DNA of 64,000 bases, taken from NCBI GenBank assembly GCA_049290195.1, contig JBATNE010000040.1:10127-74126 (forward strand). Reading direction: 5' to 3'. This document shows positions 2,695 to 44,378 of this stretch, piece after piece. The position numbers were made by a program, and so were the translations under genes. The notes beneath the pieces are model-generated. The model made no database searches. It saw only the letters and a list, made by a program, of their open reading frames with translations, and was not told where the DNA came from. This DNA comes from Candidatus Zixiibacteriota bacterium. Lineage in GTDB: Bacteria; Zixibacteria; MSB-5A5; GN15; FEB-12. The number at the start of each line of letters is the position of its first letter. Positions within the stretch are counted from its first letter, which is position 1.

Positions 2695-2729
2695 GACCAA
2701 AGAAAAGGGACGATCAAATGATCGTCCCT
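2695..2729 (-). terminator. Intrinsic terminator of the T9SS cargo gene
   Basis: Perfect 10-bp stem AGGGACGATC-AAAT-GATCGTCCCT (2706-2729). On the minus strand it is followed by TTTCTTTGG. It lies about 28 nt downstream of the stop at 2757. Confidence 0.65.
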
Positions 2730-2756
2730 CTTGCAAAGAAAAATTGAAAACTCAAT

Positions 2757-4910: not shown

Positions 4911-5131
4911 AGTCTCCCGTTCAATTTATTGAAAGGTTGTTCGTGCCCCCAACTGGTGCATCGTCCGATGGTGGCATTGGTAATCCATTATTGACGTTAT
5001 CGGTCATTGTCATGGATAAATTAGGGGGGCAACGCCGCACCCTTGGGGTCAAACCGGCGTTGATACTCTAGAGGAGATGACAGGTAGCGCCAATTGGCGT
5101 TCGATCGCAAATCTGTTATACTGTATCAACT

Positions 5132-23543: not shown

Positions 23544-24830
23544 TTATACCCAGCCACGGTCTTTGCAGGCCTGGGCAACACGGCTGACAGCCACGATATA
23601 AGCGGCGTCGCGCATGTACAGCTTGCGCTGACGGGCGAGTTCGCTCACGGCGTGGAAGGCAGAGGTCATCTTGGTGTCCAGCGCATTCAAAACCTGGTCT
23701 TTTTCCCAGTAGAAGTTCTGATTGCTCTGTACCTGTTCGAAATAGCTGCAGGTCACGCCACCGGCGTTCGCGAGGAAGTCCGGGATCATGAAGATGCCGC
23801 GTTCGTGAATGACCTTATCGGCTTCGGGAGTAGTCGGACCGTTGGCGCCTTCGCTGATGATCCGGACCTTCTTGCCGATCTTATTGACGTTTTCAGCGGT
23901 GATCTGGTTCTCAATTGCGCTCGGGAGCAGGACATCGACATCCTGTTCAATCCAGGCGCCACCGGGGAGAACTTCGTAGCCAAGATCTTTGGCCTTGTTC
24001 TTGTCAATGCCGCCGAAACGATCGGTGACGTTCAACAGCTCGTCCGGATTGACGCCGGCCATTTTGCGGAACGTATACGACGTCTGGTCGTGCTGATCCC
24101 ACGAAGAGACACAGATAACCTTGCCGCCGAGTTCCTGGAACAAACGGACGGCATACTGGGACACGTTGCCAAAGCCCTGAACGGCGGCAGTGGAGCCCTG
24201 CGGCTTCATGCCCAGTTCTTTCATGGCTTCGCGTACGCAGTAAATCACGCCGTAACCGGTAGCTTCGGTACGACCAAGAGAGCCGCCCATACCAACCGGC
24301 TTACCGGTGATAAGGCCCGGAAGCTTCTGGCGATTGATGGTCTCAAATTCATCAAGCATCCAGAGCATATGCTGGCCGTTGGTCATCACGTCCGGGGCCG
24401 GAACGTCGGTCAACGGGCCAATGTCTTTGGAAAGAGCGCGTACCCAGCCACGGCAGATGGCTTCCTGCTCACGCATGCTGAGGTTGTGCGGGTCGCAAAT
24501 GACTCCGCCCTTGGAGCCGCCGAGCGGTATGTCGACCACGGAAGTCTTCCAGGTCATCCACATGGAGAGAGCACGTACCGTGTCAATGGTCTCCATCGGG
24601 TGGAACCGGATGCCGCCCTTGCCCGGACCGCGAGAATCATTGTGCTGAACGCGGAAGCCGCGGAACACTCTGGTCTTGCCGTCATCCATCCGAACCGGGA
24701 TTGCGAACACATATTCCCGCATCGGTACCCGGAGCAGATCACGGGTGGCTTGATCCAAGCCAAGGAAATCAGCCGCACGGTCAAACTGCGCCTGAGCCAT
24801 GGCAAAGGGGTTGAACGCTTTGTTATCCAT
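23544..24830 (-). CDS. gdhA: Glutamate dehydrogenase (Glu/Leu/Phe/Val dehydrogenase family)
   Basis: Motifs GPGKGGIRFHP and PLGGSKGG are present, with a Rossmann GFGNVSQY. 428 aa. Confidence 0.9.
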   Translation of the reverse strand: MDNKAFNPFAMAQAQFDRAADFLGLDQATRDLLRVPMREYVFAIPVRMDDGKTRVFRGFRVQHNDSRGPGKGGIRFHPMETIDTVRALSMWMTWKTSVVDIPLGGSKGGVICDPHNLSMREQEAICRGWVRALSKDIGPLTDVPAPDVMTNGQHMLWMLDEFETINRQKLPGLITGKPVGMGGSLGRTEATGYGVIYCVREAMKELGMKPQGSTAAVQGFGNVSQYAVRLFQELGGKVICVSSWDQHDQTSYTFRKMAGVNPDELLNVTDRFGGIDKNKAKDLGYEVLPGGAWIEQDVDVLLPSAIENQITAENVNKIGKKVRIISEGANGPTTPEADKVIHERGIFMIPDFLANAGGVTCSYFEQVQSNQNFYWEKDQVLNALDTKMTSAFHAVSELARQRKLYMRDAAYIVAVSRVAQACKDRGWV

Positions 24831-25623
24831 TTACATTACCTCCTAGGTTGTCACGACCACATTGGATCGGATTCGTCAACCGTGACCTCTTTGCCACCAG
24901 CATGCTGAATTCCGACACGTTACAATGCGATCCATTCAATTCAATTTTGCGCGGCTATAAGTAGTGAAATCTTTCACAAATGTCAAGGACTACCAATCTC
25001 CGATTCAAACATTTGTCTATTCGTCGGTCAAAAACAAGATAAATCGCGTCTGAAATATGTTAAAATGGTCATAAGACCCCACGACTATTCCGCATGTATC
25101 TGTGAGGTAATGGGTTAATAGGGATAGGATGACCGTTTTCTGTCCCGGGCCGACGCCACCTAAAGATCACCCCCGCGAGGTAAGCGGGGGTGTCCACGCA
25201 AAAAAAGCTAGATAACGATGAAAGCAGGTCTCCAAATGGACTGCGACTTTTGGTCAATCTGTCACTCGAACCACATGGTGGTATTACTGCTCTCTCGCTG
25301 AATGAGGACTAATAACTCTTTGTTGTCAATACAAAAGTCGAGATAGGCACAAGATTTGGATTCAGCCTAGATTGGTGTTGTTTTGTGGGACCGAGAACCG
25401 AGAGGGAACCCGGGCGCCCTATGAGATTCGGCGGAAATGGCAGGTTGCCGACCTTATCTGACAATTCCGGTTCAATATGACCTTCTAACTATACGACAAA
25501 AATGGTCTAAATTGGAGTAATCGCTACATGTTTTTTGACAATTGTGTTGCGCCAGGTATGGCGTGGACTTATTCTAGTAGCCCGAAAATACCACGGTTGA
25601 AAAATACCCCTTAGGGAGGTCCG

Positions 25624-26211
25624 ATGACCCAACAGAGCCGGCAAACTGATCCAACCGAAGCCGAATTGCGCGAAGCATTCTGGCGCCAGGTAGATGTCAT
25701 CCCGGATGGGCACAAGTTAAGTCTCTGTCTTCAATGCGGTACCTGTACCGGAAGCTGCCCCGTTTCCTATGCCATGGATATTACTCCACGCCAGACCATT
25801 GCTCTGTTTCGGGCCGGGATGCTCGAAGACATCCTGCACAGCAGAACCATTTGGATCTGTGCGTCATGCTACTCATGTACGGTGCGGTGCCCGGTCGGCA
25901 TCAAGGTCACTGACACCATGTATGCGCTTAAGCGTCTGGCGATGGAGAAGAAGGTGTATCCGCCCAAATTTGCGGTGCACACGCTGTCGAAGGCGTTTAT
26001 CGAAAATGTTTACAAGTACGGCCGGAACTACGAATTGGGGCTGGGGCTGAAGTATTTCCTGAAGTCAGACTTTATGAAGCTGTTCGCAAATACAGGATTC
26101 GCCCTCACCATGTTTCGACACGGGAGGTTGGGGCTGCTTCCTTCAAAAATCAAACGGGTTGACCAGGTTCGGGCAATTATCAAACGAGCGAACCAGATTC
26201 CGGAGGCGTGA
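25624..26211 (+). CDS. hdrC: Heterodisulfide reductase subunit C-like (2x[4Fe-4S])
   Basis: CLQCGTCTGSCP and CASCYSCTVRCP motifs. SD GGGAGG lies 6 nt upstream of the ATG. Confidence 0.8.
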   Translation: MTQQSRQTDPTEAELREAFWRQVDVIPDGHKLSLCLQCGTCTGSCPVSYAMDITPRQTIALFRAGMLEDILHSRTIWICASCYSCTVRCPVGIKVTDTMYALKRLAMEKKVYPPKFAVHTLSKAFIENVYKYGRNYELGLGLKYFLKSDFMKLFANTGFALTMFRHGRLGLLPSKIKRVDQVRAIIKRANQIPEA

Positions 26212-27092
26212 TGTTGGAATTTGCATACTATCCGGGCTGCAGTCTGGAGACTAGCGGGTCTTCCTACGACAAGTCCATTCGCCAGGTTTTCCAGAAGCTC
26301 GAGATCGGGCTGAAGGAGATCGAAGACTGGAACTGCTGCGGCGCAACTATGTACATGTCAGTGAAGGCGCTGGTCGGTTATTCCATCTCGGCCCGCAATC
26401 TGGCTCTTGCCGAATCCATGGGACTCCCGATCTGTGCGCCCTGCAGCAGCTGCTACACGATTCTCAGAAAGACCAATCGATTTATCGAATCCAACACCAA
26501 AGAACGCGAGCACATAAACGACGCGCTCGGTGCCGCCAACTTGAGTTATACAGGTACGGTTTCGGTCCGCCACCCATTGGACATCCTGGTCAACGACGTT
26601 GGTATCGAGAAGATCGCCGCTGCGTCCAGAGTTAAGCTCACTGGGATCAAGGTCGCGCCATACTATGGATGTCAGGTGGTCAGGCCACAGGGGTTTTTCG
26701 ACGATGTCGACGAGCCCATGACGATGGATCGGCTCTTCCAGGGATTAGGGGCAGAGGTCACTCATTTCCCTGGCAAGGTGAGATGCTGCGGAGGGATGCT
26801 GATGACCACACAGACAGATATCGCCTACAAACTCAATCATACGCTTCTCCAGGCCGCTGTTGACAATGGCGCCGACATTATTGCGACAGCGTGCCCGCTC
26901 TGCCAGATGAACCTTGAAGCGTATCAGGCCAAAATCAACCAGGTATACGGCACGAGTTTTAACATCCCGGTGGTCTATTTCAGTCATCTCGTCGGCATCG
27001 CACTCGGAATTCCGGCGGAAGACATGGGAATGGGGGACTTCGTGATTCCCGCTGATCGATTGACAGCGAAGTTGGCGGAGGTAAGCAGATGA
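26211..27092 (+). CDS. hdrB: Heterodisulfide reductase subunit B-like (two CCG domains)
   Basis: YYPGCS...WNCCGA and YYGCQ...KVRCCGG, i.e. two Cys-rich CCG domains. The start is ATG 26211 (or GTG 26208) and overlaps the hdrC stop. Confidence 0.85.
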   Translation: MLEFAYYPGCSLETSGSSYDKSIRQVFQKLEIGLKEIEDWNCCGATMYMSVKALVGYSISARNLALAESMGLPICAPCSSCYTILRKTNRFIESNTKEREHINDALGAANLSYTGTVSVRHPLDILVNDVGIEKIAAASRVKLTGIKVAPYYGCQVVRPQGFFDDVDEPMTMDRLFQGLGAEVTHFPGKVRCCGGMLMTTQTDIAYKLNHTLLQAAVDNGADIIATACPLCQMNLEAYQAKINQVYGTSFNIPVVYFSHLVGIALGIPAEDMGMGDFVIPADRLTAKLAEVSR

Positions 27093-28069
27093 CTAGTACG
27101 AATGGTCCCAATGGGAATAGTGAAATTCGGGTCGGCGTGTACGTCTGCCACTGCGGCTCAAATATTGCCAAGGTAGTTGATGTTGCCAAAGTAGCGGAGG
27201 CGTGTCGCACATTGCCGGGAGTGGTAGTCTCCAAGCACTATCGCTTCATGTGTTCCGACCCCGGACAGGAGTTAATCCGCAAGGACATCGAAGAATTGGG
27301 GCTTAACCGCGTTGTGGTTGCGGCCTGTAGCCCGCTCATGCACGAGGGAACGTTCAGGAAGGCGGTCGAAACCGCCGGACTCAATCGGTACTACTTCGAA
27401 ATGGCCAACATTCGTGAGCAGGTGAGCTGGGTTACCGATGACGCTCGCGCAGCAACAACAAAAGCCAAAGCGCTGGTGCGGGCCGCTATTGCCCGCGTTC
27501 GCTTCCATGAAGCGCTCGAAATGCGGCGCGTCCCGATCAAGCAGGCAGTTATGGTAGTCGGGGGCGGTATTTCCGGAATCGAAGCGGCCTTGCAGATGGC
27601 GGACGCCGGCTTTCAAGTCTATCTGGTGGAACGGGAAGCCTCGATAGGCGGGCATATGTCTCAGTTTGATAAGACCTTTCCAACCCTTGATTGCGCTGCC
27701 TGTATTCTCACTCCAAAAATGGTCTCGGTCGGCAAGCATCCCAATATCAAGCTAATGACGTGGACTGACATCGAGGAAGTGTCCGGTTCAATCGGCAGTT
27801 TCAAGGTAAAGGTCCGCAGGAAAGCGCGCTACGTGGACGAAAAGCTGTGCAACAGCTGCGGTTCGTGCTACGAGGCTTGCATCAGTCGTCCCTACCCGAA
27901 GAAGAGACGGATGATTCTCGGTGATTGCGTCTTTCGCGAAGGACGACTTCTCGATGTCAAAGACAAGTACATACTGGGCCCAAAACATGACCTCACTGTT
28001 CTGACCGGCGCACAGCCGATGCCCGAAAACGTCGAACCGGCGCCTGACGAAGAGGAAGCACTCGCATGA
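27089..28069 (+). CDS. hdrA: HdrA-like flavoprotein, N-terminal half only (N-terminal [4Fe-4S] domain, first part of the FAD/thioredoxin-reductase fold, first Cys motif of the inserted ferredoxin domain)
   Basis: VGVYVCHCGSNIA..FMCSDPG..VVAACSPLMHE..NIREQVSWV. FAD dinucleotide motif VVGGGISGIEAA with GGHMSQFDKTFPTLDCAACILTPKM. It ends after CNSCGSCYEAC with a non-homologous acidic tail. The start is an ATGA overlap with hdrB. Confidence 0.85.
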   Translation: MTSTNGPNGNSEIRVGVYVCHCGSNIAKVVDVAKVAEACRTLPGVVVSKHYRFMCSDPGQELIRKDIEELGLNRVVVAACSPLMHEGTFRKAVETAGLNRYYFEMANIREQVSWVTDDARAATTKAKALVRAAIARVRFHEALEMRRVPIKQAVMVVGGGISGIEAALQMADAGFQVYLVEREASIGGHMSQFDKTFPTLDCAACILTPKMVSVGKHPNIKLMTWTDIEEVSGSIGSFKVKVRRKARYVDEKLCNSCGSCYEACISRPYPKKRRMILGDCVFREGRLLDVKDKYILGPKHDLTVLTGAQPMPENVEPAPDEEEALA

Positions 28070-28581
28070 CCACTGAAGTTAAGTCCGATTTTGATCTGGA
28101 GAAGCGGATTTCGGAGATTGTGAAGCAATACGGCGCCAAACCATCGGCGCTGATCATGATTCTCCAGGATATTCAAAAGCACTATCGCTACCTGCCCAAG
28201 GATGCAATGGTTGCGGTCTCCAAGAAAATGCGCCTGCCCCTTGCGCAGATATATGGAGTTGCCACGTTCTACCGCTCTTTCAGCCTGACCCCTAAGGGAA
28301 GGAATCATATCTGTGTCTGTACCGGCACGGCCTGTCACGTACGACAGTCGGTCGTCATTCTCGAACACCTTGAACGACAGGTTGGAATCAAGGCCGGAGA
28401 GACGTCGGCGGATCTTGAGTATTCGCTGGAGCGTGTGAACTGTCTCGGCGCCTGCGCGCTCGGACCGTTGGTCACGGCCAATGAGCAGTACTACGGGAAT
28501 ATGACAGTAGCCAAGGCCGATCGGATGCTCGGTGAACTTCGCGGCAAACACGAGAAGTCAACAGCAGGAGAAACGGTATGA
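28066..28581 (+). CDS. NuoE/HoxE/HydC-like thioredoxin-fold [2Fe-2S] subunit
   Basis: ATFYRSF...ICVCTGTACH...VNCLGACALGP. ATGA overlaps at both ends. Confidence 0.85.
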   Translation: MTTEVKSDFDLEKRISEIVKQYGAKPSALIMILQDIQKHYRYLPKDAMVAVSKKMRLPLAQIYGVATFYRSFSLTPKGRNHICVCTGTACHVRQSVVILEHLERQVGIKAGETSADLEYSLERVNCLGACALGPLVTANEQYYGNMTVAKADRMLGELRGKHEKSTAGETV

Positions 28582-30584
28582 GGACAAAAATTCTCACGCC
28601 TCAAGGCCTCAATGACTATCGCGATCAGATTATTGCATCGCGCGATTCGAACAAGATGTCGATAAGCGTCTGTGCCGGCACCGGGTGCCTGGCCTGCGGA
28701 TGTCAGGCGGTCGTCAATGCTCTCCGCAAAGAAATCGCAGCTGCCGGGCTCGAACATGAGGTCGACATCAAGACTACCGGATGCCATGGCTTTTGCGAAC
28801 GAGGTCCACTGCTGTTGATCAATCCGGAAGGCATCTTCTACCAGCGGGTCAAACCGGCTGACGTCAAGTTGATCGTTGATCAGACCGTCAGAGGCGGCCG
28901 ACTGGTGAACAAGCTGCTGTACCGAGATCCTCAAACAGGCGAAGTGATCAAACACGCCGAGGACATTCCGTTCTACAAGAAGCAAATGCGGCTGATCTTC
29001 GGTCGTAACGGCCAGATGGACCCCACGTCTATCGAGGATTACATCGCTCTGGGTGGCTATGGACCCGCGGCAAAGGCGCTGACCCGGATGCAACCGGAGT
29101 CAATTGTCGACCTGATTAAGAAGTCGGGCCTTCGCGGTAGAGGCGGCGGCGGCTTTCCGACCGGGCGCAAATGGGACCACTGTCGTCGGGCCGTCGGAAC
29201 GCCGAAGTATATCATCTGCAATGCCGACGAAGGTGACCCTGGAGCCTTTATGGACCGGTCGCTTCTTGAGGGCAATCCGCACTCCGTCATTGAAGGAATG
29301 ATCATCGGTGCCTATGCCATCGGCGGCAGCGAAGGGTTTGTTTATGTCCGCAACGAATACCCGCTTGCAGTCAAGAATTTGACTATCGCCCTGGAACAAG
29401 CTCATGATTGCGGCCTATTGGGCGACAACATCCTTGGCACGGGATTCAATTTTGACATAGAAGTCTCACGGGGAGGCGGAGCCTTTGTGTGTGGCGAATC
29501 AACCGCACTCATGGCTTCGCTGGAAGGGAAAATGGGGGAACCACGGGCCAAGTACATTCACACTGTCGAACAGGGGCTGTGGGACAAGCCGACCAACCTC
29601 AACAACGTAGAAACCTGGGCCAATGTCCCAATCATCTTGGATCGTGGCGCCGAGTGGTACTCATCGATCGGAACAGAGAATTCCAAGGGGACCAAAGTGT
29701 TCGCCCTGACCGGAAAGATCAACAACACCGGCCTGGTTGAAGTACCCATGGGAATCACGCTTCGGGAAATCCTGTACGATATCGGTGGTGGTGTCCCGGG
29801 GGGCAAGCGATTCAAAGCTGTCCAGACCGGGGGACCATCAGGTGGAACGCTGATTGTGGAAACCGGTGAAGTGGCCATTCATGATAGTATGGTGGCTCAT
29901 GGAGATATTAGGGAAGATGAAAAAGTTGAGAGTCTGCTGGATCTTCCGGTTGATTTCGATGAATTGACCCGTGCCGGCTCAATGATGGGTTCCGGCGGCA
30001 TGATCGTCATGGACAGCGATTCCTGCATGGTGGACGTAGCCAAATACTTCCTGAATTTCCTTCAGGAAGAAAGCTGCGGGAAATGCGTTCCCTGCCGCGA
30101 AGGGATCGTGGTCATGCTCAAGATACTCACCAAAGTGTCTGATGGAGAGGGAACCCTTGAGGATATCGGCTATCTCGAGCAGTTGTCTCAGGTGATCACC
30201 GATACCAGCCTTTGCCAGCTCGGCGGATCGGCACCGAATCCGGTTCTGTCGACTATCAGGTATTTCCGGCAGGAATATTTGGCCCATGTCCTGGATCATC
30301 GCTGCCCGGCAGGTGTCTGCAAGGCGCTGGTGTCGCATGCGATCGATGAATCCTGCACCGGATGCCACGCCTGCTACAAGTCGTGTCCGACACAGGCGAT
30401 TGTCGGAGAAGCCAAGAAACTTCACTACATCGTTCAGGATAAATGCATTCAGTGCGGTGCTTGCTATCAGATCTGCAAGTATGCCAGCATTAAGCGCGTG
30501 AAACGGGGCGAAGGAGAAGCAGTCCAGACGCGGGCAAAGGAACGCTGGTTGGCGCCATCAAAACCTGAACCGGTTGTCGCCTAG
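28578..30584 (+). CDS. NuoF/HoxF/HydB-like NAD(P)H- and FMN-binding subunit with an N-terminal [2Fe-2S] thioredoxin-like domain and a C-terminal 2x[4Fe-4S] ferredoxin domain
   Basis: GLRGRGGGGFPTGRKW, ICNADEGDPGAF, ESCGKCVPCREG, and C-terminal CTGCHACYKSCP / CIQCGACYQIC. The N-terminus reads VCAGTGCLACG..GCHGFCERGP. Confidence 0.88.
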   Translation: MRTKILTPQGLNDYRDQIIASRDSNKMSISVCAGTGCLACGCQAVVNALRKEIAAAGLEHEVDIKTTGCHGFCERGPLLLINPEGIFYQRVKPADVKLIVDQTVRGGRLVNKLLYRDPQTGEVIKHAEDIPFYKKQMRLIFGRNGQMDPTSIEDYIALGGYGPAAKALTRMQPESIVDLIKKSGLRGRGGGGFPTGRKWDHCRRAVGTPKYIICNADEGDPGAFMDRSLLEGNPHSVIEGMIIGAYAIGGSEGFVYVRNEYPLAVKNLTIALEQAHDCGLLGDNILGTGFNFDIEVSRGGGAFVCGESTALMASLEGKMGEPRAKYIHTVEQGLWDKPTNLNNVETWANVPIILDRGAEWYSSIGTENSKGTKVFALTGKINNTGLVEVPMGITLREILYDIGGGVPGGKRFKAVQTGGPSGGTLIVETGEVAIHDSMVAHGDIREDEKVESLLDLPVDFDELTRAGSMMGSGGMIVMDSDSCMVDVAKYFLNFLQEESCGKCVPCREGIVVMLKILTKVSDGEGTLEDIGYLEQLSQVITDTSLCQLGGSAPNPVLSTIRYFRQEYLAHVLDHRCPAGVCKALVSHAIDESCTGCHACYKSCPTQAIVGEAKKLHYIVQDKCIQCGACYQICKYASIKRVKRGEGEAVQTRAKERWLAPSKPEPVVA

Positions 30585-30594
30585 GAGAGTCAAT

Positions 30595-32352
30595 ATGCCA
30601 TTAGTCAAAATCAAAATAGACGGCCAGTCGGTAGAGGTGGAAGAAGGATCCTACGTCCTGGAAGCGGCCAGATCGCTGGGTGTAGATATTCCTACGCTGT
30701 GCTATTACCCGTACATGACCCCCTACGCGGCTTGCCGCATTTGCTGTGTCGAAGCGCGGGCCGGCAATGGCTGGAATAAGATCGTCACCGCCTGCAACTA
30801 TCCGGCGTGGGATGGCTTGGAGATCTGGACCGACACTCCCAGAGTGGTCAATGCAAGGCGCACCAATTTGGAGATGCTTATGGCCAATTGTGCGCCCGTA
30901 GCTGTTCTCCAAAACCTGGGTGAGCAACTCGGCATCAAAGAACCGAGATGGGGAACCGGAGACTACACCTGTATACTCTGTGGACTCTGCGTTCGCATCT
31001 GTGATGAAGTCGTAGGAGCGCATGCTCTCTCATTTGTCAATCGCGGATCGCAGCGCGATGTTTCGACACCTTTCGCTTTAGACTCCGACGCCTGCATTCT
31101 CTGCGGGGCATGCGCAAAGTTATGTCCGACCGGTTACATGAAAATGGAAGACATTGAGGACCGGGTACTGAATCACCGCGAACTCGACCTCAGTCCCAAC
31201 GCCGCAATAACCTTGCAGTTCAGGCAGGCAGTGCCCAATGTGCCGCGGATCTATCGGGAAAACTGCATTCACTTCAAGACCGGCCAATGCATGGTTTGCT
31301 CAAAGGTCTGTCCGAAAGAAGCTATTGCCTTTAATGTCTCGGACGAAATCGAAGAGATCGAAGTTGGCGCTGTCGTGATGGCGACTGGATTCGACAGCTT
31401 TGATCCAACCCCGATGAAGCAGTATGGCTACGGGACGCTCCCCAATGTGGTAACGGCCGAGGAATTCGAAATCATGAACAATGCCGCCGGACCGACCGGC
31501 GGAAAAGTGATCCTGGAAAACGGACGGGAACCCAAGTCCATTGCCATCCTGCACTGCATCGGGAGCCGCGACGAACACCACCACAAGTATTGCAGTCGCG
31601 TCTGCTGCATGTACGCGATGAAGTTTGCCCATCTCGTGACCGAGAAAACCAGCGCTGAAGTCTACCAGTTCTACATCGACATGCGGGCATACGGCAAGGG
31701 GTACGAGGAATTTTATCAGAGAATTCTCCATGAAGGCGTGAATGTTATCAGAGGGAAAGCCGCGGAAGTGGTCTCGACTACTTTCCAACGCAAAGCCGAA
31801 GGGCCGCTCTTGGTCCGGTGCGAAGATACTCTGATTGGCAAGTTCCGCGAAATTCCGGTCGATATGGTAATCCTCTGTACTGCGCTCCAGGCTCGCGCTG
31901 ACGCCAAGGAGGCGGGTCGGAAATTCAACATCTCCACCGGAGCCGATGGCTGGTTTATCGAGGCTCACCCGAAACTGGCGCCGGCGTCGACGACTACCGA
32001 CGGTGTATTTCTGGCCGGCGTCTGTCAGGGCGCCAAAGACATACCGGACTCAGTGGCTCAGGCCGGAGCGGCGGCTGCCCAGGCGATGAAACTTATGTGT
32101 CAGAAAGAAATCCTCATGGACGCCGCCTATGCGGAAATCCAGGATGAACTCTGCTCCGGGTGCAAAATCTGCAACGATATGTGCCCGTATACGGCCATTT
32201 CGTTTGTCGAAGACAAGAAGATCAGCCACATCAATTCCTCACTGTGCAAAGCGTGTGGCACATGTGTGGCGGCATGTCCGTCAGGTGCGATCAAGGGGAG
32301 GCATTTCACCGATGATCAGATATACGCGCAAATCGAAGGGATGCTGGCATGA
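30595..32352 (+). CDS. hdrA: Fusion of a HoxU/NuoG-N-terminal-like [2Fe-2S]+2x[4Fe-4S] module to the HdrA C-terminal half (rest of the FAD fold plus C-terminal ferredoxin domain)
   Basis: The N-terminus reads MPLVKIKIDGQSVEV..LCYYPYMTPYAACRICCVE..CNYP, then CILCGLCVRIC and CILCGACAKLCP. HdrA-type motifs follow: EVGAVVMATGFDSFDP, CIGSRDE..YCSRVCCMYAMK, YIDMRAYGKGYEEFY, GVFLAGVCQGAKDIPDSVAQ, CSGCKICNDMCP and CKACGTCVAACP. I prefer the start at ATG 30595 (SD AGGAG) over 30574. Confidence 0.85.
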   Translation: MPLVKIKIDGQSVEVEEGSYVLEAARSLGVDIPTLCYYPYMTPYAACRICCVEARAGNGWNKIVTACNYPAWDGLEIWTDTPRVVNARRTNLEMLMANCAPVAVLQNLGEQLGIKEPRWGTGDYTCILCGLCVRICDEVVGAHALSFVNRGSQRDVSTPFALDSDACILCGACAKLCPTGYMKMEDIEDRVLNHRELDLSPNAAITLQFRQAVPNVPRIYRENCIHFKTGQCMVCSKVCPKEAIAFNVSDEIEEIEVGAVVMATGFDSFDPTPMKQYGYGTLPNVVTAEEFEIMNNAAGPTGGKVILENGREPKSIAILHCIGSRDEHHHKYCSRVCCMYAMKFAHLVTEKTSAEVYQFYIDMRAYGKGYEEFYQRILHEGVNVIRGKAAEVVSTTFQRKAEGPLLVRCEDTLIGKFREIPVDMVILCTALQARADAKEAGRKFNISTGADGWFIEAHPKLAPASTTTDGVFLAGVCQGAKDIPDSVAQAGAAAAQAMKLMCQKEILMDAAYAEIQDELCSGCKICNDMCPYTAISFVEDKKISHINSSLCKACGTCVAACPSGAIKGRHFTDDQIYAQIEGMLA

Positions 32353-32807
32353 GCTTTGAACCTCGCATCATAGGGTTTCTGTGCAACTGGTGCAGTTACA
32401 CAGGCGCTGACTTGGCCGGAACATCGCGAATGAAGTATCCGGCCAATGTCCATACAATTCGCGTCATGTGCAGCGGACGCGTCGACCCGGGATTCATCCT
32501 CGACTCGTTCAGAAATGGCGCCGATGGCGTTCTCGTGTGTGGATGCCATCCGGGCGACTGCCACTATGTCGAGGGAAACTATAAGTGCCTCCGTCGAATA
32601 CCGATGACGGCAAAAATCGTCGAGGGAATGGGGATTGACAAGCGGCGCCTTCGGCTGGAGTGGGTCTCAGCTTCAGAAGGAGCGCGATACCAGCAGGTCG
32701 TGTCAGAATTCACCGAGCAGATTCGTGCTCTGGGTCCATTTCGGTTGACCGATTGGGCATTTGATCCTTCCAGGGAACTTGCCCACGCTCGTGGGGAGAA
32801 GGAGTAA
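32349..32807 (+). CDS. mvhD: MvhD/FlpD-like hydrogenase delta subunit ([2Fe-2S])
   Basis: IIGFLCNWCSYTGADLAG...VMCSGRVDP..GADGVLVCGCHPGDCHY. Confidence 0.88.
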   Translation: MSFEPRIIGFLCNWCSYTGADLAGTSRMKYPANVHTIRVMCSGRVDPGFILDSFRNGADGVLVCGCHPGDCHYVEGNYKCLRRIPMTAKIVEGMGIDKRRLRLEWVSASEGARYQQVVSEFTEQIRALGPFRLTDWAFDPSRELAHARGEKE

Positions 32808-32810
32808 ATC

Positions 32811-33782
32811 ATGGCAAAGCCTAAACTGGCGATCTATTGGGCGGCATCGTGCGGCGGCTGTGATATCGCCATTCTGGACATAGAAGAGAAGATTCTGGAT
32901 GTCGCCAATTTCTTTGATATCGTCCTCTGGCCCTGTGCGACGGACTTTAAGTACGACGATGTCCGCAAGATGGAAGACAAGTCCATCACCCTGACACTTT
33001 TCAACGGTGCTATCAGAAGCGACGAGAACTACGAGATAGCCGAACTGCTTCGCCGCAAGTCGGTGGTACTGTGTGCGTTTGGAAGCTGCGCATCCGAAGG
33101 CTGCATACCCGGATTGGCCAATTTCTATACCAAACAGGGAATCATGGAATATGCCTACAAGCAGTCTCCATCGACCGTCAACCCCGAAGGTGTCATGCCC
33201 CAGACTTCGGTGCAGGTCCCTGAAGGAAAGTTGACTATTCCCAATCTCTGGAACACCGTCCGCACCCTTCCTCAGGTAGTCGACGTTGACTATATCATTC
33301 CGGGATGTCCACCCCAGTCAGACCAAATTGCTGCCGTAATTTCCGCGGTAATAGACATTCTGCAAAACGGGAAACCGCTTCCCCCAAAGGGAACGGTACT
33401 CGGGGCATCGGAAAAGAGCTGCTGCGACGAATGCACTCGCAAGCGAGATGTGAAGAAAATCAAGAAGTTCATTCGCCCGTTTGAAAAGGTGAGTGATCCG
33501 GAAATCTGCTTGATGGAGCAGGGAATGGTCTGCCTTGGTCCGGCTACTCGAGCCGGCTGCGGAGCAAAGTGCGTCGGAGCGGGAGTGCCGTGTCGCGGAT
33601 GCTATGGTGCCCCAAGCAACGTACACGATCAGGGAGCCAAAATGGCGTCAGCGATCGGCAGCGTCATTGACTCAGTTGATCCCAGGGAGATTGATGAGAT
33701 TATCGCGACTATCGCCGACCCGCTCGGGACCTTTTACCGCTTCAGTCTTCCGGATTCGATGCTTCGGAGGGTACAGTCATGA
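32811..33782 (+). CDS. mvhG: [NiFe] hydrogenase small subunit, cytosolic group 3 type (MvhG-like)
   Basis: KLAIYWAASCGGCDIAILD (proximal cluster motif), GSCASEGCIPG, PGCPP, and C-terminal Cys clusters. No Tat signal. Confidence 0.85.
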   Translation: MAKPKLAIYWAASCGGCDIAILDIEEKILDVANFFDIVLWPCATDFKYDDVRKMEDKSITLTLFNGAIRSDENYEIAELLRRKSVVLCAFGSCASEGCIPGLANFYTKQGIMEYAYKQSPSTVNPEGVMPQTSVQVPEGKLTIPNLWNTVRTLPQVVDVDYIIPGCPPQSDQIAAVISAVIDILQNGKPLPPKGTVLGASEKSCCDECTRKRDVKKIKKFIRPFEKVSDPEICLMEQGMVCLGPATRAGCGAKCVGAGVPCRGCYGAPSNVHDQGAKMASAIGSVIDSVDPREIDEIIATIADPLGTFYRFSLPDSMLRRVQS

Positions 33783-35260
33783 AACAGATTCTGATTGATC
33801 CGATTACCCGCCTCGAGGGGCACGGCAAGATACACCTGTTCATCAACGATGACGGAAGTCTGGCCAATTGCTACTTTCAAGTTCCTGAATTGCGGGGATT
33901 CGAAAAATTCTGCCAGGGACGACCGGTCGAGGAACTGGCGCGCATAACCACCAGAATTTGCGGTGTCTGTCCCGACGCTCACCATATGGCGGCGGCAAAG
34001 GCGGCCGACGCCGTTTACGGAGTTACCATTCCACCGGCGGCCAGAAAACTCCGCGAACTCATGTACAATGCGTTCTATGCCGGTGACCATTGTACGCACT
34101 TCTATGCTCTCGGTGGCCCGGATTTCGTCTGCGGACCTGATGCACCGGCGGCAGAACGGAACATCCTCGGAGTCATTGCCAAAGTCGGTATCGACGCCGG
34201 CAAGAAGGTAATTGCTCATCGAGCCCGCGGCCAGCGGGTGATTGAAATTATCGGCGGCAAAAAGGTTCATCCGGTGACGTCGATTCCCGGCGGTCTCTCC
34301 AAGAGAATCACCAAGGAAGAACAGCAGGAGATCATCAAGATCGGTGAGGAAATGGTCGAATTTGCCAAGTTCACCATTCAGGTCTTGAATGACGTCGTGC
34401 TGGCGAATAAGGCGTACGTCGACATGATTCTCTCTGACGCTTATGCACACAAAACCTATAACATGGGACTGGTTGACAGTAACGGCAAAGTGACCTTCTA
34501 CGACGGTATGGTCCACGTGACCGACCCCGAAGGCGCAGACTTTGAGTCTTACGAGGCAAAGGACTATTTGAATCATGTTGCGGAGCACGTCGAGCCGTAC
34601 AGCTATCTAAAGTATCCTTATCTCAAGAATGTAGGGTGGAAGGGATTTGTCGACGGCAAGGATTCAGGCGTGTACAAGGCGACACCTCTGGCGCGGTTAA
34701 ATGTCTCCAACGGCATGGCCACTCCGCTGGCTCAGGCTGAGTATGAGCGCTTCTACGAGACGCTGACCGGTGAGCGCTCCGGCAAGAAGCCGGTCCACTC
34801 AACGCTCGCCACCCATTGGGCGCGCGTAGTCGAGCTGATGTTCGCCTGCGAGGCAACGCTTCAGCAGGCCAAAGACGACGAAATCACTTCGGACCATGTC
34901 CTCAACGTTCCGACAGGCATTGTTGGCGAGGGGGTTGGTATTGTCGAGGCACCGCGAGGAACGCTCACACATCATTACAAGACCGACAAGAACGGAATTG
35001 TAACCGAGGCGAACCTGATCGTCGGGACTACCAATAATAATGCCCCGATCACGATGTCGATCAAAAAGGCAGCTGAAGGAGTGATCAAGAAAGGGACGAA
35101 GATCACCGACGGTATGCTGAACCGGATCGAAATGGCTTTCCGCGCCTACGACCCCTGCTTCGGCTGTGCCACGCACACTCTGCCCGGCGAGATGCCGCTT
35201 GAGTTGGTGATGCACGATGCTGCTTCAGGTGATATTGTAGATTCCGTCCGGAGAGGCTGA
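33779..35260 (+). CDS. mvhA: [NiFe] hydrogenase large subunit, cytosolic group 3 (MvhA-like)
   Basis: N-terminal RLEGHGKI, L1 motif RICGVCPDAHH, and L2 motif DPCFGCATH followed by a C-terminal extension that would be cleaved by an endopeptidase. Confidence 0.9.
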   Translation: MKQILIDPITRLEGHGKIHLFINDDGSLANCYFQVPELRGFEKFCQGRPVEELARITTRICGVCPDAHHMAAAKAADAVYGVTIPPAARKLRELMYNAFYAGDHCTHFYALGGPDFVCGPDAPAAERNILGVIAKVGIDAGKKVIAHRARGQRVIEIIGGKKVHPVTSIPGGLSKRITKEEQQEIIKIGEEMVEFAKFTIQVLNDVVLANKAYVDMILSDAYAHKTYNMGLVDSNGKVTFYDGMVHVTDPEGADFESYEAKDYLNHVAEHVEPYSYLKYPYLKNVGWKGFVDGKDSGVYKATPLARLNVSNGMATPLAQAEYERFYETLTGERSGKKPVHSTLATHWARVVELMFACEATLQQAKDDEITSDHVLNVPTGIVGEGVGIVEAPRGTLTHHYKTDKNGIVTEANLIVGTTNNNAPITMSIKKAAEGVIKKGTKITDGMLNRIEMAFRAYDPCFGCATHTLPGEMPLELVMHDAASGDIVDSVRRG

Positions 35261-35772
35261 TGAAGCCAATTCTGGTTCTGTGCCTCGGCAACGAGGTATT
35301 GAGTGATGACTCCTTCGGCTATCACGTACACAATCGACTGAGGGAGTCGTTTCAATCATCCGAGACTGCGGATATTGAGTTTTCTTCAATCGCAGGATTC
35401 ACTCTTATCGACGTCTTGCAGGAAAGACGTCACGTGTTAATCGTAGACGCCATCTCCACCGGTGCAAAGGCGGGGTTACTGCACTTCTTTGAAGCGAGTT
35501 TGCTGACACCGTCGCGGCACCTCGTTAATAGTCATCAGATCAGCCTGCCATCGGCAATTAGTCTGGGCATTCAATTTGGATTGGATATGCCGGAGCGCAT
35601 AGATGTATTAGCGGTGGAAGCACAGGATATCGAAACATTATCCGAGTCAATGACGCTCCCCGTCGCACATGCACTTGGAGAAGCGTGTGATCGTGTTCTC
35701 CAATGGGTAAACGGGCGTTCGCAGGAACTTACCAGTCCACCCATGCTGCCTGAAGCAATTCTATCGCACTGA
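35260..35772 (+). CDS. Hydrogenase maturation endopeptidase (HycI/HoxW/FrxA family)
   Basis: VLCLGNEVLSDDSFGYHV and DAISTG motifs. The start overlaps the mvhA stop (TGATG). Confidence 0.8.
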   Translation: MKPILVLCLGNEVLSDDSFGYHVHNRLRESFQSSETADIEFSSIAGFTLIDVLQERRHVLIVDAISTGAKAGLLHFFEASLLTPSRHLVNSHQISLPSAISLGIQFGLDMPERIDVLAVEAQDIETLSESMTLPVAHALGEACDRVLQWVNGRSQELTSPPMLPEAILSH

Positions 35773-35777
35773 ATTCG

Positions 35778-37469
35778 CTAGCGGCCAGCCGGAAACAGCT
35801 GCTGCAACGCCCGACCATCCATATCTCTGAGACCAATCTGCACACCAAGTAATCGGGCGAGCGTCGGTGCCAGATCTATTGTCATGATGTGGTCGGTGTT
35901 CCGCCCGGATGTCGTGTGGCAGAGGAAGAGAATCGGAACGTTGGTATCGTATGAATACGGCGTCCCGTGCGATGTGCCAAATTTCGATGATCCCGGCAAG
36001 GCGTATTCCGGATATCTGAGATAGATGTCCGGTCCACGGAGCGGGTGGAACGAATTGCGAAATTGCTCGAAATACAGTCGACCGGCTCCGCCACCCGACT
36101 GAAGTTCATCCCGGGTAAAGGCATCGGCGATGTAGGGAAGGTGCCGAATTCTTGCGGCTACTATCTGCTGCAAGTCGGGGTCACTCATCCCCTTCTTGCG
36201 CGCGCCGTCATAGGACAAGTGAACGTCGTAGCTGGCATCGGCAACGGGATTTCCTTCCAGCTTGAAATCCGCCTGTATTTGTACTCCAATGGCGCGGATA
36301 TCCCGAGTTATCGAGTCAATCGGCAGCCTCTTTGACGCAATGCCCTGGTTCTGAAGATCTTCGGGTAAGGGCAAGATGCCATGATCTGAGGACATAGCGA
36401 TGCAGTATTTATTCGCTCCGACCGTCTGGTCCAGATAGGTCAGAAACGTGTCGAGGTACTTATCCAGCCTGAGATAGTAGTCCTGAATCTCCCAGCTATT
36501 TGGTCCGTAGGTATGGCCGATAGCATCGGCAGCCGAACAGCTGATGCACAGGAGATCTGGTACGGTGTCGAGACCCAACTCTGCATGGGCAATGACTGTC
36601 CGAGCCAAATCCAGCAGGAGGCCGTCGGCGAACGGAGTTCCATAGAATGCTCCGAAGTAGTTCTTGTCGGGCACGCCGGTGGCAGTGTCAAACAAGTGCG
36701 GAAAGGTCGTGTGGACGCCGTCGTTTTCCGAAGGAAACTTGTCCGCATGCGAGAGATGATATGCTGAGTCAGGCAGAAGGAGCGTCCACCCTTTTCGATA
36801 ATTGAGCGTAACTGCACCGGATGAATTGAATGAGTCCAGCCAGGCCGGAACCGACGCCATGTAGTATTCCGACGAAACAAACCTGCCTGTTGAACGGCTG
36901 TACCAAAATGCTGCATCCGGATGTTGGCCACCCAGCAGAATCGAAGCTCGGTCCTTCAGGGCCACCGAGTATACTCGGGTCGTGGGCCGCAGCTTCTTCA
37001 TCCAGTCACCGAGCGCCAATCCGATGAGTCGTCTTGGTGATCGGCCGACTGCTGCAGTGTCTCCCAATATGTGTGAGGCGCTATCCTCGCACGAATAAAC
37101 CACTCGCCTGTCTTCTCGGTCGTACCAGTCATTCCCGATCACGCCGTTGTGCATCGGATAGCGGCCGGTGGAAAGGGTGGCATGACCAACTGACGTTTCA
37201 GTGGCGGCGTGATCGTGATATGCGTTTGAAAACAGCAGACCATCCCTCAGTAGACGCGCCAATCCTCCGGTAAACTGACCCGAGAATCGCGCGAGATAGT
37301 CGGGCACCATCTGGTCGATTACGAGAATTATGCCGAGTCGGGCGGATGGTGCAACGGCTCTCGTGGTATCTTGGGGGGCGGCTACACTTGCGATGGGGAG
37401 TAGTGTAAGTCCGAGGACTGAGAGCGTTGCGAGAAGACAAACGGTGCTCGCTCTCTTTGCGCTAGTCAT
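35778..37469 (-). CDS. Secreted alkaline-phosphatase-superfamily enzyme (nucleotide pyrophosphatase/phosphodiesterase type)
   Basis: Signal peptide (LLATLSVLGLTLLPIASVAA). Metal site GIILVIDQM, nucleophile region AATETSVGHATLSTG, ..DAIGHTYGP.., SSDHG. Confidence 0.75.
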   Translation of the reverse strand: MTSAKRASTVCLLATLSVLGLTLLPIASVAAPQDTTRAVAPSARLGIILVIDQMVPDYLARFSGQFTGGLARLLRDGLLFSNAYHDHAATETSVGHATLSTGRYPMHNGVIGNDWYDREDRRVVYSCEDSASHILGDTAAVGRSPRRLIGLALGDWMKKLRPTTRVYSVALKDRASILLGGQHPDAAFWYSRSTGRFVSSEYYMASVPAWLDSFNSSGAVTLNYRKGWTLLLPDSAYHLSHADKFPSENDGVHTTFPHLFDTATGVPDKNYFGAFYGTPFADGLLLDLARTVIAHAELGLDTVPDLLCISCSAADAIGHTYGPNSWEIQDYYLRLDKYLDTFLTYLDQTVGANKYCIAMSSDHGILPLPEDLQNQGIASKRLPIDSITRDIRAIGVQIQADFKLEGNPVADASYDVHLSYDGARKKGMSDPDLQQIVAARIRHLPYIADAFTRDELQSGGGAGRLYFEQFRNSFHPLRGPDIYLRYPEYALPGSSKFGTSHGTPYSYDTNVPILFLCHTTSGRNTDHIMTIDLAPTLARLLGVQIGLRDMDGRALQQLFPAGR

Positions 37470-39699: not shown

Positions 39700-39728
39700 T
39701 TGACAGTTTGTGCATTATTTCACATACT
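39700..39728 (+). promoter_or_regulatory. Sigma-70-like promoter candidate for the second hydrogenase operon
   Basis: TTGACA (39700-39705), 17 nt spacer, then CATACT (39723-39728), in an AT-rich tract. Confidence 0.35.
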
Positions 39729-39762
39729 TGGTCATTGTCTATCGGAAGATGGAGCTGAAAAT

Positions 39763-40980: not shown

Positions 40981-40984
40981 ACCA

Positions 40985-42306: not shown

Positions 42307-42308
42307 AT

Positions 42309-44367: not shown

Positions 44368-44378
44368 GGGGAATTCAC

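Follow-up and report, generated by a model that had tools for sequence, protein, structure and literature searches.

HdrA's inserted ferredoxin-like domain (clusters HA5/HA6) is where electrons are expected to exit and the dock for the polyferredoxins FmdF and MvhB, with HA6 lying 9.8 A from MvhB (PMC12350162). For the BfuABC family (HydABC, NiFe-HydABCSL, NfnABC, and WorABCSL), BfuBC and a Type 2 form of BfuA have been defined, and in the Type 2 logic electrons enter or leave at cluster A4 from extra subunits (PMC9304861, PMC12318220). Schut et al. 2022 gave Bam as the sole Hdr/Mvh-linked Bfu type; BCRII (BamBCDEFGHI), the "Bam-Bfu" of PMC9304861, is the only described enzyme joining HydBC/Bfu-type (BamGHI) and HdrA-type (BamE) modules, and is a precedent for both within one complex (bioRxiv 10.64898/2026.04.10.717634).

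The window, a stretch of 64,000 nucleotides from an uncultured Candidatus Zixiibacteriota bacterium, carries ten translationally coupled genes in the order hdrC-hdrB-hdrA(N)-bfuC-bfuB-[bfuA-NTD::hdrA(C)]-mvhD-mvhG-mvhA-hycI. All six subunit types of the methanogen MvhAGD-HdrABC complex (PDB 5ODC, 8RVU) are shared, and that complex provides their best solved relatives (HdrA, E~1e-100 per half; HdrB, 1e-48 against 8rvu_b along its full length; MvhA, 5e-117). As far as the literature was searchable, a split HdrA combined with Bfu is not described in any paper. The features are as follows:

25624..26211, + strand, hdrC, 2x[4Fe-4S] subunit (Pfam Fer4_8/Fer4_17; syntenic across all related loci)
26208..27092, + strand, hdrB, two CCG domains, disulfide reduction site (Pfam CCG x2, E=5.8e-25)
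27089..28069, + strand, hdrA N-half (326 aa): N-terminal Cys domain, FAD GxGxxG, motif 1, conserved tail
27848..27880, + strand, motif 1 (CNSCGSCYEAC, residues 254-264), first Cys motif of the inserted ferredoxin domain
27881..28066, + strand, conserved C-terminal tail of the hdrA N-half, ISRPYPKKRRMILGDCVFREG...GPKHDLTVLTGAQPMPE...
28066..28581, + strand, bfuC, NuoE/HydC-like, [2Fe-2S] (Pfam 2Fe-2S_thioredx, E=5e-49)
28578..30584, + strand, bfuB, NuoF/HydB-like, 668 aa (Pfam domain order)
30595..31170, + strand, BfuA N-terminal domain (G-module), [2Fe-2S] + 2x[4Fe-4S], fused ahead of the HdrA C-half
31171..32352, + strand, hdrA C-half: linker, motif 2, remaining FAD domain (CSRVCCMYAMK), C-terminal 2x[4Fe-4S]
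32349..32807, + strand, mvhD, [2Fe-2S] adaptor from hydrogenase to HdrA (Pfam FlpD, E=3e-54)
32811..33782, + strand, mvhG, [NiFe]-hydrogenase small subunit (Pfam Oxidored_q6; syntenic in related loci)
33779..35260, + strand, mvhA, [NiFe]-hydrogenase large subunit (top PDB match MvhA 5odc_F, E=5e-117)
35260..35772, + strand, HycI-like hydrogenase maturation protease (Pfam HycI, E=8e-10)

The division of HdrA

The N-half was aligned with residues 11-265 of the solved HdrA 8rvu_a (E=5.6e-100). In ORF 30595-32352 (585 aa), the match begins at about residue 270, downstream of a 190-aa foreign module, and runs to residue 653 (E 5e-108 to ~1e-107). The cut therefore falls within the inserted ferredoxin domain and separates its two Cys motifs, and alignment with unsplit bacterial HdrAs put the point of resumption at 'LNHRELDLSPNAAITLQFRQAVP', immediately past the CP of motif 1. 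There is no overlap between the halves (1-265 and ~270-653), which supports their being complementary pieces rather than complete paralogues. An earlier note on this DNA had given the coordinates and content of both ORFs, had placed the break inside this domain, and had proposed alignment with full-length HdrAs as a check; coordinates, content, and break were borne out. The C-half ORF starts at an ATG with a GGAGA Shine-Dalgarno sequence, the TTG at 30574 being a mechanical ORF start only.

Chain 1 holds the FAD dinucleotide fold and the DCAAC loop, chain 2 holds the CSRVCCMYAMK cluster/Lys segment and the remaining thioredoxin-reductase-like domain, and each carries one Cys motif of the inserted ferredoxin domain. 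Motif 1 aligns with that of unsplit HdrAs, and its four Cys are invariant in 50-51 sequences; motif 2, located by the same alignment, is C-x7-CMVCSKVCP (nt 31264-31314). Across 50 N-half and 45 C-half homologues, no cluster-ligand Cys varies, nor does the FAD-proximal Lys; C224/232/235/239 and K343 of the C-half are among these residues. In the split ferredoxin domain, none of the eight Cys varies, which argues for functional clusters. As judged from sequence, two chains together make up HdrA: both the dinucleotide-binding part (chain 1) and the cluster/Lys segment (chain 2) would be needed for the FAD site, and the HA5/HA6-equivalent [4Fe-4S] clusters would draw their ligands (3+1 Cys) from both. 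That both sites must be rebuilt from two chains, as had been proposed, is consistent with this division of parts and the invariant ligands. Modeled alone with AF2, the N-half has a pLDDT <50 at residues 187-205 and 256-263, and the C-half is at 31-57 across residues 185-262; in these models, the low-confidence segments are exactly those that touch the other half in HdrA.

The end of the N-half had been described as an unrelated acidic tail, but it is conserved. Its first ~20 residues contain a motif common to all five split lineages, and within the Zixibacteria family P270, R273, and G285 are invariant and ~17 more positions are conserved at 90% or above, making ~20 positions at that level. 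A beta-hairpin was predicted at 273-285, with low confidence (AF2).

The Bfu module within the break

The hdrA-N/nuoE and nuoE/nuoF junctions are 4-bp ATGA overlaps, and the next ATG lies 10 nt past the nuoF (bfuB) stop. Pfam searches agreed with the earlier assignment of the genes in the break as nuoE/nuoF-like. A complex I NuoEF identity was considered and ruled out because HydC/HydB-type proteins score far better: the seven top PDB matches of bfuC are all HydC/BfuC from bifurcating enzymes, complex I ranking lower, and bfuB is matched best by NiFe-HydB 7t2r_B (E=3e-234), WorB 9mqx_B, and HydB 8a6t_B, as against only ~1e-108 for complex I NuoF. The bfuB product comprises an N-terminal [2Fe-2S] domain, the FMN/NADH site, a [4Fe-4S] domain, and a C-terminal 2x[4Fe-4S] ferredoxin domain.

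The N-terminal module ahead of the HdrA C-half, previously called foreign, is indeed foreign to HdrA, but it can now be named: it is the N-terminal domain of a Type-2 BfuA, an FeS domain of the BfuA/HydA/NuoG type. Residues 4-192 align in a single stretch with residues 5-194 of WorA 9mqx_A (rmsd 1.9 A over 185 columns, Foldseek), and 12 of 12 Cys are invariant. The module has neither a His-ligated cluster nor A3, and BfuA's C-terminal domain is absent. Together with the nuoEF-like genes, it makes up a complete BfuABC electron-bifurcating unit. The complete unit, the conservation of the tail, and the wide spread of the architecture are points absent from the earlier note.

Distribution and origin of the arrangement

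All 20 loci that have a short HdrA-N and extend far enough downstream, each from a separate assembly, share the split order; they come from Zixibacteria, Sumerlaeota, Chloroflexota, and unclassified MAGs. Each HdrA half has >120 homologous protein clusters (coverage 92-100%), those of the N-half being 314-329 aa long. A split HdrA with Bfu at its low-potential exit is a widespread, multi-phylum architecture. It is thus hardly credible that the split stems from misassembly, a frameshift, or the decay of a pseudogene. No point was found in support of this; the search for split orthologues, which the earlier note had recommended, returned the same arrangement in 20 independent assemblies of several phyla, the genes filling the gap (2.5 kb) are intact and overlap, conservation is strong in each half and in the tail, and the halves combined have hundreds of homologous clusters.

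Variants occur. Two loci, L014 and L015, have the split HdrA and the G-module but no adjoining bfuBC. BfuB of the Ktedonobacter-like loci has a GltD-like domain at its end in place of the ferredoxin-binding domain, so the ferredoxin stoichiometry proposed below is not general. Unsplit parents with the same flanks (hdrCB-hdrA-mvhDGA-hycI) are present in Anaerolineae, the Sumerlaeota version retains accessory genes typical of hydABC operons, and in one single-chain protein (P0131) the BfuA-NTD is inserted in-frame at the same HdrA site. P0131 adjoins BamB/BamC-like genes. In another locus (L046), a type III HdrA with a GltD insert (1109 aa) adjoins the split-Bfu operon. We infer that an hdrCB-hdrA-mvhDGA operon acquired, within its inserted ferredoxin domain, a bfuCBA cassette that came from a hydABC-type operon.

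Predicted electron flow and comparison with known systems

Published structures (PMC12350162) and the GltD insertion site (PMC12054007) both fit the proposal that the break lies at the point of electron departure from the flavin. Because the inserted ferredoxin domain is the low-potential exit and polyferredoxin dock, one Mvh-Hdr-Bfu complex with tandem bifurcation is most likely, and we lean, if only somewhat, toward the operon encoding a single soluble supercomplex with two bifurcating modules in series, its function being a prediction. Mvh and MvhD would stay at their usual input position and HdrBC on the high-potential branch, ending at a disulfide. The host is bacterial, and CoM-S-S-CoB is therefore unlikely as substrate; Zixibacteria RBG-1 has no CoM/CoB biosynthesis (PMC3903129). 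The BfuA domain (clusters A4, A2, and A1) is covalently joined ahead of motif 2, and its fusion at the site where, in methanogens, a docked polyferredoxin takes the low-potential electron suggests that the HdrA flavin has its low-potential branch hard-wired via BfuA. From there, electrons would pass to the BfuBC core, with its FMN, NAD(H) site, and ferredoxin-binding C-terminal domain; the grafted branch would plausibly be NADH-linked. Bifurcation would occur at the HdrA FAD first and at the Bfu FMN/FeS second, half of the low-potential electrons going to NAD+ rather than to ferredoxin, for a net, reversible reaction of 4 H2 + 2 RSSR + NAD+ + 2 Fd(ox) <-> 4 RSH + NADH + 2 Fd(red). If true, the H2 threshold would be lowered and the reaction would be near equilibrium at sediment H2 levels, by potential arithmetic rather than measurement.

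The same physical complex might instead use Bfu as a simple NAD(H) port without bifurcation, or mainly in the confurcating direction, which we regard as possible but rather doubtful. The HdrA flavin could then have NADH and H2 as alternative mid-potential partners, as has been proposed for FlxABCD-HdrABC or for type III HdrA with its GltD insert; the enzyme could act as an NADH:disulfide reductase, with H2 either vented or taken up; or NADH and Fd(red) could confurcate into HdrA as in BCRII, which runs its Bfu module in that direction (bioRxiv 10.64898/2026.04.10.717634). The NAD(P)H modules of type III HdrA at the same site (PMC12054007; L046) and the Ktedonobacter-like BfuB, with GltD and no ferredoxin-binding C-terminal domain, also point this way. 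However, BfuB and BfuC of the window retain all domains of the bifurcating core, including the HydC-type partner, and BfuB is far closer to bifurcating HydB (E~1e-234) than to NuoF (~1e-108), BfuC likewise being nearer HydC. It is quite improbable that the operon encodes two enzymes, a NiFe-Bfu hydrogenase (BfuABC + MvhAG, cf. Acetomicrobium mobile NiFe-HydABCSL) and a separate Hdr, with the HdrA-BfuA fusion a mere tether and no electron transfer via the inserted ferredoxin domain. The B subunit of NiFe-HydABCSL is the best solved relative of BfuB and its large subunit, 7t2r_D, the third-best of MvhA (E=1e-109), but the top match of MvhA is a true MvhA, and the G-module lacks A3 and the C-terminal domain, which form the NiFe SL-to-BfuA route in NiFe-HydABCSL (PMC12318220). 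Moreover, the HdrA adaptor MvhD is present and kept across related loci, the eight split-domain Cys are invariant, and without electron transfer it would be difficult to account for a covalent fusion adjoining motif 2.

The single Mvh-Hdr-Bfu complex would differ from each described system. FlxABCD-HdrABC of sulfate reducers is likewise a bacterial combination of an NADH-linked partner with HdrABC and an MvhD-like protein, but its HdrA is a single chain and its cluster encodes no hydrogenase, whereas here there are no Flx-type proteins and the NAD(H) module is of the NuoEF/Bfu type. The domain order, cluster motifs, and FAD-proximal Cys/Lys of HdrA are those of MvhAGD-HdrABC, and bacterial unsplit versions have the same hdrCB-hdrA-mvhDGA order; the differences are that HdrA is in two chains, cut between the Cys motifs of its inserted ferredoxin domain, and that BfuABC sits where free ferredoxin or MvhB/FmdF accepts the low-potential electron. 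Type III (HdrL-like) HdrA, which also occurs with mvhADG, has its NAD(P)H-linked GltD (NfnB-like) graft at the same site, right after motif 1 (PMC12054007), but as a single in-frame domain in an intact chain; here the graft has three subunits, fusion is confined to the BfuA N-terminal domain, and two genes encode HdrA. BCRII, the only solved Bfu+HdrA complex, shares the Type 2 BfuA homologue but has neither hydrogenase nor HdrBC, and its BamE is a single, unsplit chain (a fused HdrA dimer). Its Bfu is a separate arm feeding the HdrA input through the C-terminal ferredoxin domain and the MvhD-like BamF, and its inserted ferredoxin domain feeds BamBC, whereas here Mvh/MvhD take the input side, with Bfu joined by fusion to the inserted domain on the output side, a proposed wiring without precedent. 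Finally, the cofactor motifs of BfuB, BfuC, and the BfuA-NTD are all those of the BfuABC family, with NiFe-HydB and WorA/B/C as the nearest solved relatives; BfuA is without its own C-terminal domain, and the "third substrate" module would be HdrA, another bifurcating enzyme, joined by gene fusion.

The operon and its two HdrA chains

Ten genes on the + strand, from hdrC to a maturation protease, lie in one run in which the ends overlap or almost abut, and the Pfam assignment of each gene matches expectation.

Genes of the Mvh-Hdr-Bfu operon (window positions, strand, gene)
25624–26211, +, hdrC
26208–27092, +, hdrB
27089–28069, +, hdrA N-half (326 aa)
28066–28581, +, nuoE-like gene (BfuC)
28578–30584, +, nuoF-like gene (BfuB)
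30595–32352, +, 585-aa fusion protein (G-module::HdrA-C)
32349–32807, +, mvhD (Pfam FlpD)
32811–33782, +, mvhG (Pfam Oxidored_q6)
33779–35260, +, mvhA (Pfam NiFeSe_Hases)
35260–35772, +, maturation protease

The hydrogenase is of the Mvh type (group 3c), MvhA, MvhG and MvhD being encoded beside the hdr genes (Pfam and best PDB match, which for MvhA is 5odc_F). Between hdrC and the divergent gdh (23544–24830, −) lie ~790 bp without a convincing gene (24831–25623); an Rfam scan of the window, this interval included, gave zero matches, and a promoter and terminator scan of 24800–36200 gave no signal exceeding the shuffled expectation. Elsewhere in the window, a second [NiFe]-hydrogenase cluster (39700–44867, +), which looks like the group 3b/sulfhydrogenase type, encodes a Fer4_22 protein, an ORF with a cNMP-binding domain, a NAD_binding_1 plus DHODB_Fe-S_bind subunit, small and large subunits, and its own HycI protease. 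Two large proteins with a Por_Secre_tail (type IX secretion sorting) domain are encoded at 2757–4910 (−) and 45981–48236 (−), and the rest of the flanks holds genes for outer-membrane biogenesis (Omp85/BamA, TamB, OmpA) and lipid A.

All solved HdrA chains matched in PDB sequence searches are single chains of 643–671 aa; in the window there is no single polypeptide of ~650 aa, and hdrA occupies two genes 2.5 kb apart. Residues 12–265 of the 326-aa ORF (the N-half) match residues 11–265 of the solved HdrA 8rvu_a (E = 5.6e-100), and the 585-aa ORF, here called the C-half, matches solved HdrA to residue 653 (E ~1e-107). The N-half has the N-terminal Cys-rich domain and the FAD dinucleotide motif (VCHCG, CSDPG, AACSP, GGGISG), and these are family-invariant. 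The breakpoint was placed by aligning both ORFs with unsplit bacterial HdrAs from related loci. Motif 1 of the inserted ferredoxin (Fd) domain, CNSCGSCYEAC at nt 27848–27880, keeps all four Cys on the N-half, and divergence begins immediately afterwards. HdrA likeness restarts on the C-half at LNHRELDLSPNAAITLQFRQAVP, the segment that follows motif 1 in unsplit HdrAs, and the C-half also holds motif 2 (C-x7-CMVCSKVCP), the remaining FAD domain with its invariant FAD-proximal segment YCSRVCCMYAMK (of the CSxVCCMYxxK type), and the C-terminal 2x[4Fe-4S] domain, whose two CxxCxxCxxxCP motifs (residues 520–562) are all invariant. Across the split, fewer than 10 HdrA residues are lost and no residue occurs twice, which makes the ORFs complementary pieces and not paralogues. 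The earlier note had described both ORFs, put the break inside the inserted Fd domain and had the second ORF resume where HdrA continues; Pfam and the matches to solved structures bear out the description, and the alignment agrees with the rest.

All eight Cys of motifs 1 and 2 are invariant, and it may be asked where motif 2 finds its partner. HMMER places CILCGACAKLCP, the second Cys motif of the G-module (the first ~192 residues of the fusion protein), onto HdrA motif 1, as if the C-half carried a complete HdrA ferredoxin domain of its own. This was rejected: the partner of CILCGACAKLCP is CILCGLCVRIC, and the two belong to a dicluster domain that is native to BfuA and can be aligned with WorA from end to end. 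With three motifs on the C-half and one on the N-half, HdrA motif 2 can be paired only with the N-half motif, and we infer that the two assemble in trans into one Fd domain, both clusters of which would therefore be ligated 3+1 by two chains.

The Bfu unit, the tail and the predicted folds

In the NuoF-like protein the HydB/BfuB layout is complete, with an N-terminal [2Fe-2S] domain, an FMN/NADH site, a [4Fe-4S] cluster and a C-terminal 2x[4Fe-4S] domain (Pfam order 2Fe-2S_thioredx, Complex1_51K, SLBB, NADH_4Fe-4S, Fer4 x2). Its best PDB relatives are bifurcating proteins, namely NiFe-HydB (7t2r_B, E = 3e-234), WorB, HydB and NfnB, with complex I NuoF at ~1e-108. The adjoining gene encodes a NuoE/HydC-like [2Fe-2S] subunit, and the seven top PDB matches of its product are HydC/BfuC proteins. 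The G-module consists of Fer2_4 and a 2x[4Fe-4S] domain, and aligns in one stretch with WorA (9mqx_A), a Type-2 BfuA (Foldseek rmsd 1.9 Å over 185 columns). It has the BfuA clusters A1 and A2 and is itself of Type 2, with A4 present and A3 and A5 absent; the HxxxCxxC motif, and with it the His-ligated A3, is lacking. Since BfuB, BfuC and the BfuA N-terminal domain are all there, the unit in the break is a full BfuABC by the definitions of Schut et al. (PMC9304861) and of Feng et al. (PMC12318220); the C-terminal domain of BfuA is absent, and BfuA is joined to HdrA instead. By family membership, the unit is a putative NAD(H)/ferredoxin bifurcating module.

Two variants of the unit were seen in relatives. 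A Sumerlaeota locus (L016, 8888–13743), which has no hdrCB upstream of hdrA-N, encodes DRTGG, HATPase, HydS-like (Fe_hyd_lg_C + FeS), DRTGG, PHP and HATPase proteins between hdrA-N and bfuC, together with an extra [2Fe-2S] thioredoxin-like protein. The DRTGG, HATPase, PHP and HydS-like genes are the usual companions of hydABC operons, and therefore a hydABC-type operon may have been the source of the cassette. In Chloroflexota loci labelled Ktedonobacter (L045, 1542–4709; L043; L046), NuoF/BfuB is ~1050 aa long, and a GltD-like C-terminal end replaces the 2x[4Fe-4S] ferredoxin-binding domain.

The 62 residues that follow motif 1 on the N-half had been dismissed in the earlier note as an unrelated acidic tail, but they are conserved and not junk. 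The motif C-x-[ST]-[RF]-x-[YLVI]-P-x3-[RKQ]-x-[IL]-x2-G-[DEGN]-x-[VIT] occurs in all five split lineages. Among 51 Zixibacteria-type sequences, P270, R273 and G285 never vary, and conservation reaches 90% or more at ~17 other positions of the tail, those in GPxHDLTxLTGAQPMPE among them. AF2 predicts, with low confidence, a hairpin at residues 273–285; closing the half-ferredoxin and docking Bfu are candidate roles for the tail. On the other chain, the Cys ligands of the G-module, motif 2 and the C-terminal domain are all invariant in 46 sequences, as is the Lys of CCMYAMK, which aligns with the lysine reported to contact N5 of the bifurcating FAD (BCRII preprint, cited below; Wagner et al. 2017).

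Each chain was modeled separately with AF2 (pTM 0.49 and 0.39). Confidence is high in the self-contained domains (HdrA N-terminal domain, >90; G-module, 80–93) and poor in N-half residues 187–205 and 256–263 and in residues 185–262 and 455–511 of the C-half chain, which on both chains are the segments where HdrA needs its other half. The pattern would fit obligate complementation of the halves, weakly so because the alignments behind the models were shallow.

Distribution and origin of the split

A scan with the N-half, using one genome per species, found 326 relatives, and the loci of the best 80 were annotated by BLASTP with the proteins of the window. A short HdrA-N occurs in 24 of these best 80 of 326, and wherever enough downstream sequence is available (20 of 20 loci) the G-module::HdrA-C gene comes next. 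The orthologous split versions that the earlier note had asked for therefore exist, and because the split recurs in independent assemblies, an assembly artefact is excluded. The N-half, tail included, falls into more than 120 clusters at 90% identity (314–329 aa, 92–100% coverage), and the C-half likewise into more than 120 (579–604 aa, 99–100% coverage); source labels of the clusters are Zixibacteria, GN15, KSB1, Eisenbacteria, Thermoanaerobaculaceae and 'Acidoferrum'. A Zixiibacteriota MAG at NCBI has a protein 100% identical to the N-half of the window. Sumerlaeota and two groups of Chloroflexota have split versions too, and Anaerolineae have unsplit parents with the same flanks, hdrCB-hdrA-mvhDGA-hycI. 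Split HdrA with Bfu is thus a real, conserved, multi-phylum architecture, built from the known kinds Mvh-Hdr and Bfu, and the overall interpretation of the earlier note is both supported and extended.

Some relatives deviate in detail. L014 (2304–4993) and L015 (2622–5317) have a split hdrA-N followed directly by G-module::hdrA-C, with no bfuC or bfuB between the halves or elsewhere within the fetched locus. L063 (7785–16189) has the same operon with several genes in many short ORFs, which look like frameshift errors of a long-read assembly and not biology. Split and unsplit HdrAs of Anaerolineae share an in-frame TGA at DCxxU, where the window has DCAAC; at the equivalent of window C205 it was seen in L042, L044, L047, L050, L053 and L078. 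It presumably encodes selenocysteine in many Anaerolineae HdrAs of both kinds, and mechanical ORF calls consequently mimic an extra split at residues ~204–211.

How often the split arose was addressed with bootstrapped neighbor-joining (NJ) trees of the HdrA N-part and C-part taken apart (100 replicates). A single origin was rejected on these trees: the split forms are monophyletic in 0 of 100 replicates for either half. The Zixibacteria forms, with those lacking bfuBC, separate from all others at 100% bootstrap, and the Anaerolineae split HdrAs nest among unsplit Anaerolineae HdrAs (97% for the N-part, 100% for the C-part). Despite this placement, the tail motif and the G-module are common to all split forms. 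Any of three processes could account for the pattern: recombination that brought a cassette into a resident hdrA, repeated events, or re-fusion. That the operon is a tandem double-bifurcating hydrogenase and also that [tail-bfuC-bfuB-bfuA-NTD] is a transferable cassette which entered resident hdrA genes more than once is, as a joint claim, rather doubtful.

Proposed electron path and known systems

In methanogens, MvhB docks at the inserted Fd domain of HdrA, whose cluster HA6 lies 9.8 Å from the first MvhB cluster, and the low-potential electron reaches the other cluster, HA5, through the shuttle cluster HA3 (PMC12350162). The BfuA domain of the window has its covalent link to HdrA ~25 residues upstream of the segment leading into motif 2, and the simplest reading is that BfuA takes the place of the polyferredoxin on HdrA. 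The function proposed for the Mvh-Hdr-Bfu operon rests on homology and published structures. Mvh/MvhD would stay the input and HdrBC the high-potential branch; H2 electrons would be split at the HdrA flavin, and the low-potential half would enter the Bfu core through the two-chain Fd domain (HA5/HA6 to A4, A2, A1 and BfuBC), there to be split again between NAD+ and ferredoxin. Bfu cores exchange mid-potential electrons with NAD(H) and ferredoxin (PMC9304861), from which the net reversible reaction would be 4 H2 + 2 RSSR + NAD+ + 2 Fd(ox) <-> 4 RSH + NADH + 2 Fd(red). By textbook potentials, this would release more energy per H2 than the canonical reaction does and lie near equilibrium at ~1 Pa H2.

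Many MAGs from lineages of sediments and aquifers carry the architecture (Zixibacteria, KSB1, Eisenbacteria, Acidobacteriota-labelled, Sumerlaeota, Chloroflexota). Current annotation labels its genes simply 'MvhADG/HdrABC', 'FAD-dependent oxidoreductase' or '4Fe-4S dicluster protein', so that reconstructions assuming H2 + disulfide -> ferredoxin may misjudge both the NADH/ferredoxin balance and the H2 threshold. The Zixibacteria RBG-1 cluster was described simply as MvhADG/HdrABC (Castelle et al. 2013), and a literature search that did not extend to the chief review on the variety of HdrA (Appel et al. 2021, BBA) found no account of a split HdrA with bfu or nuoEF genes.

In type III HdrA, a GltD domain sits where the window has its Bfu graft; by Pfam, neither half of the split HdrA contains a Fer4_20/Pyr_redox_2 insert. 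In L046, a 1109-aa HdrA (2654–5983) just upstream of the split-Bfu operon has a GltD/NfnB-like insert (Fer4_20 + Pyr_redox_2) directly after motif 1, which is the type III/HdrL form, and comes with its own hdrCB and mvhD; the two operons being adjacent, a single genome has two different grafts of NAD(P)H modules at this one position of HdrA. Fusions of the G-module to HdrA-C make up ~12 clusters (50% identity) in the representative library, with variants joined to MvhD, joined to a second HdrA, or without the C-terminal Fd domain. P0131 (660 aa, JGI metagenome 3300042731) is a single-chain HdrA without the N-terminal Cys domain in which the BfuA N-terminal domain lies in-frame between motifs 1 and 2, via an acidic linker; its neighbours encode AOR (BamB-like), Fer4_11 (BamC-like), SDRs and a second HdrA-like protein. 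Unsplit, in-frame-inserted and split versions of HdrA are thus all on hand for comparison, the last being a flavoprotein and a 2x[4Fe-4S] ferredoxin fold naturally cut into two chains that would be obliged to share the FAD and both clusters.

Flavin-based electron bifurcation is carried out by four enzyme families. To our knowledge, no two of them had been reported in one complex before the 2026 preprint on class II benzoyl-CoA reductase (BCRII). There, BamGHI (Bfu) and the HdrA-like BamE share one complex, a coexistence called previously unreported (bioRxiv 10.64898/2026.04.10.717634). In BCRII, Bfu feeds the input side of HdrA via the C-terminal Fd domain and the MvhD-like BamF, and the inserted Fd domain feeds BamBC, whereas BfuA in the window, the sequence of which was compared with the text of that preprint, is fused directly upstream of motif 2. 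If the proposal is true, the window encodes a second case in nature of HdrA coupled to Bfu, wired differently, for Bfu would sit at the output and not the input.
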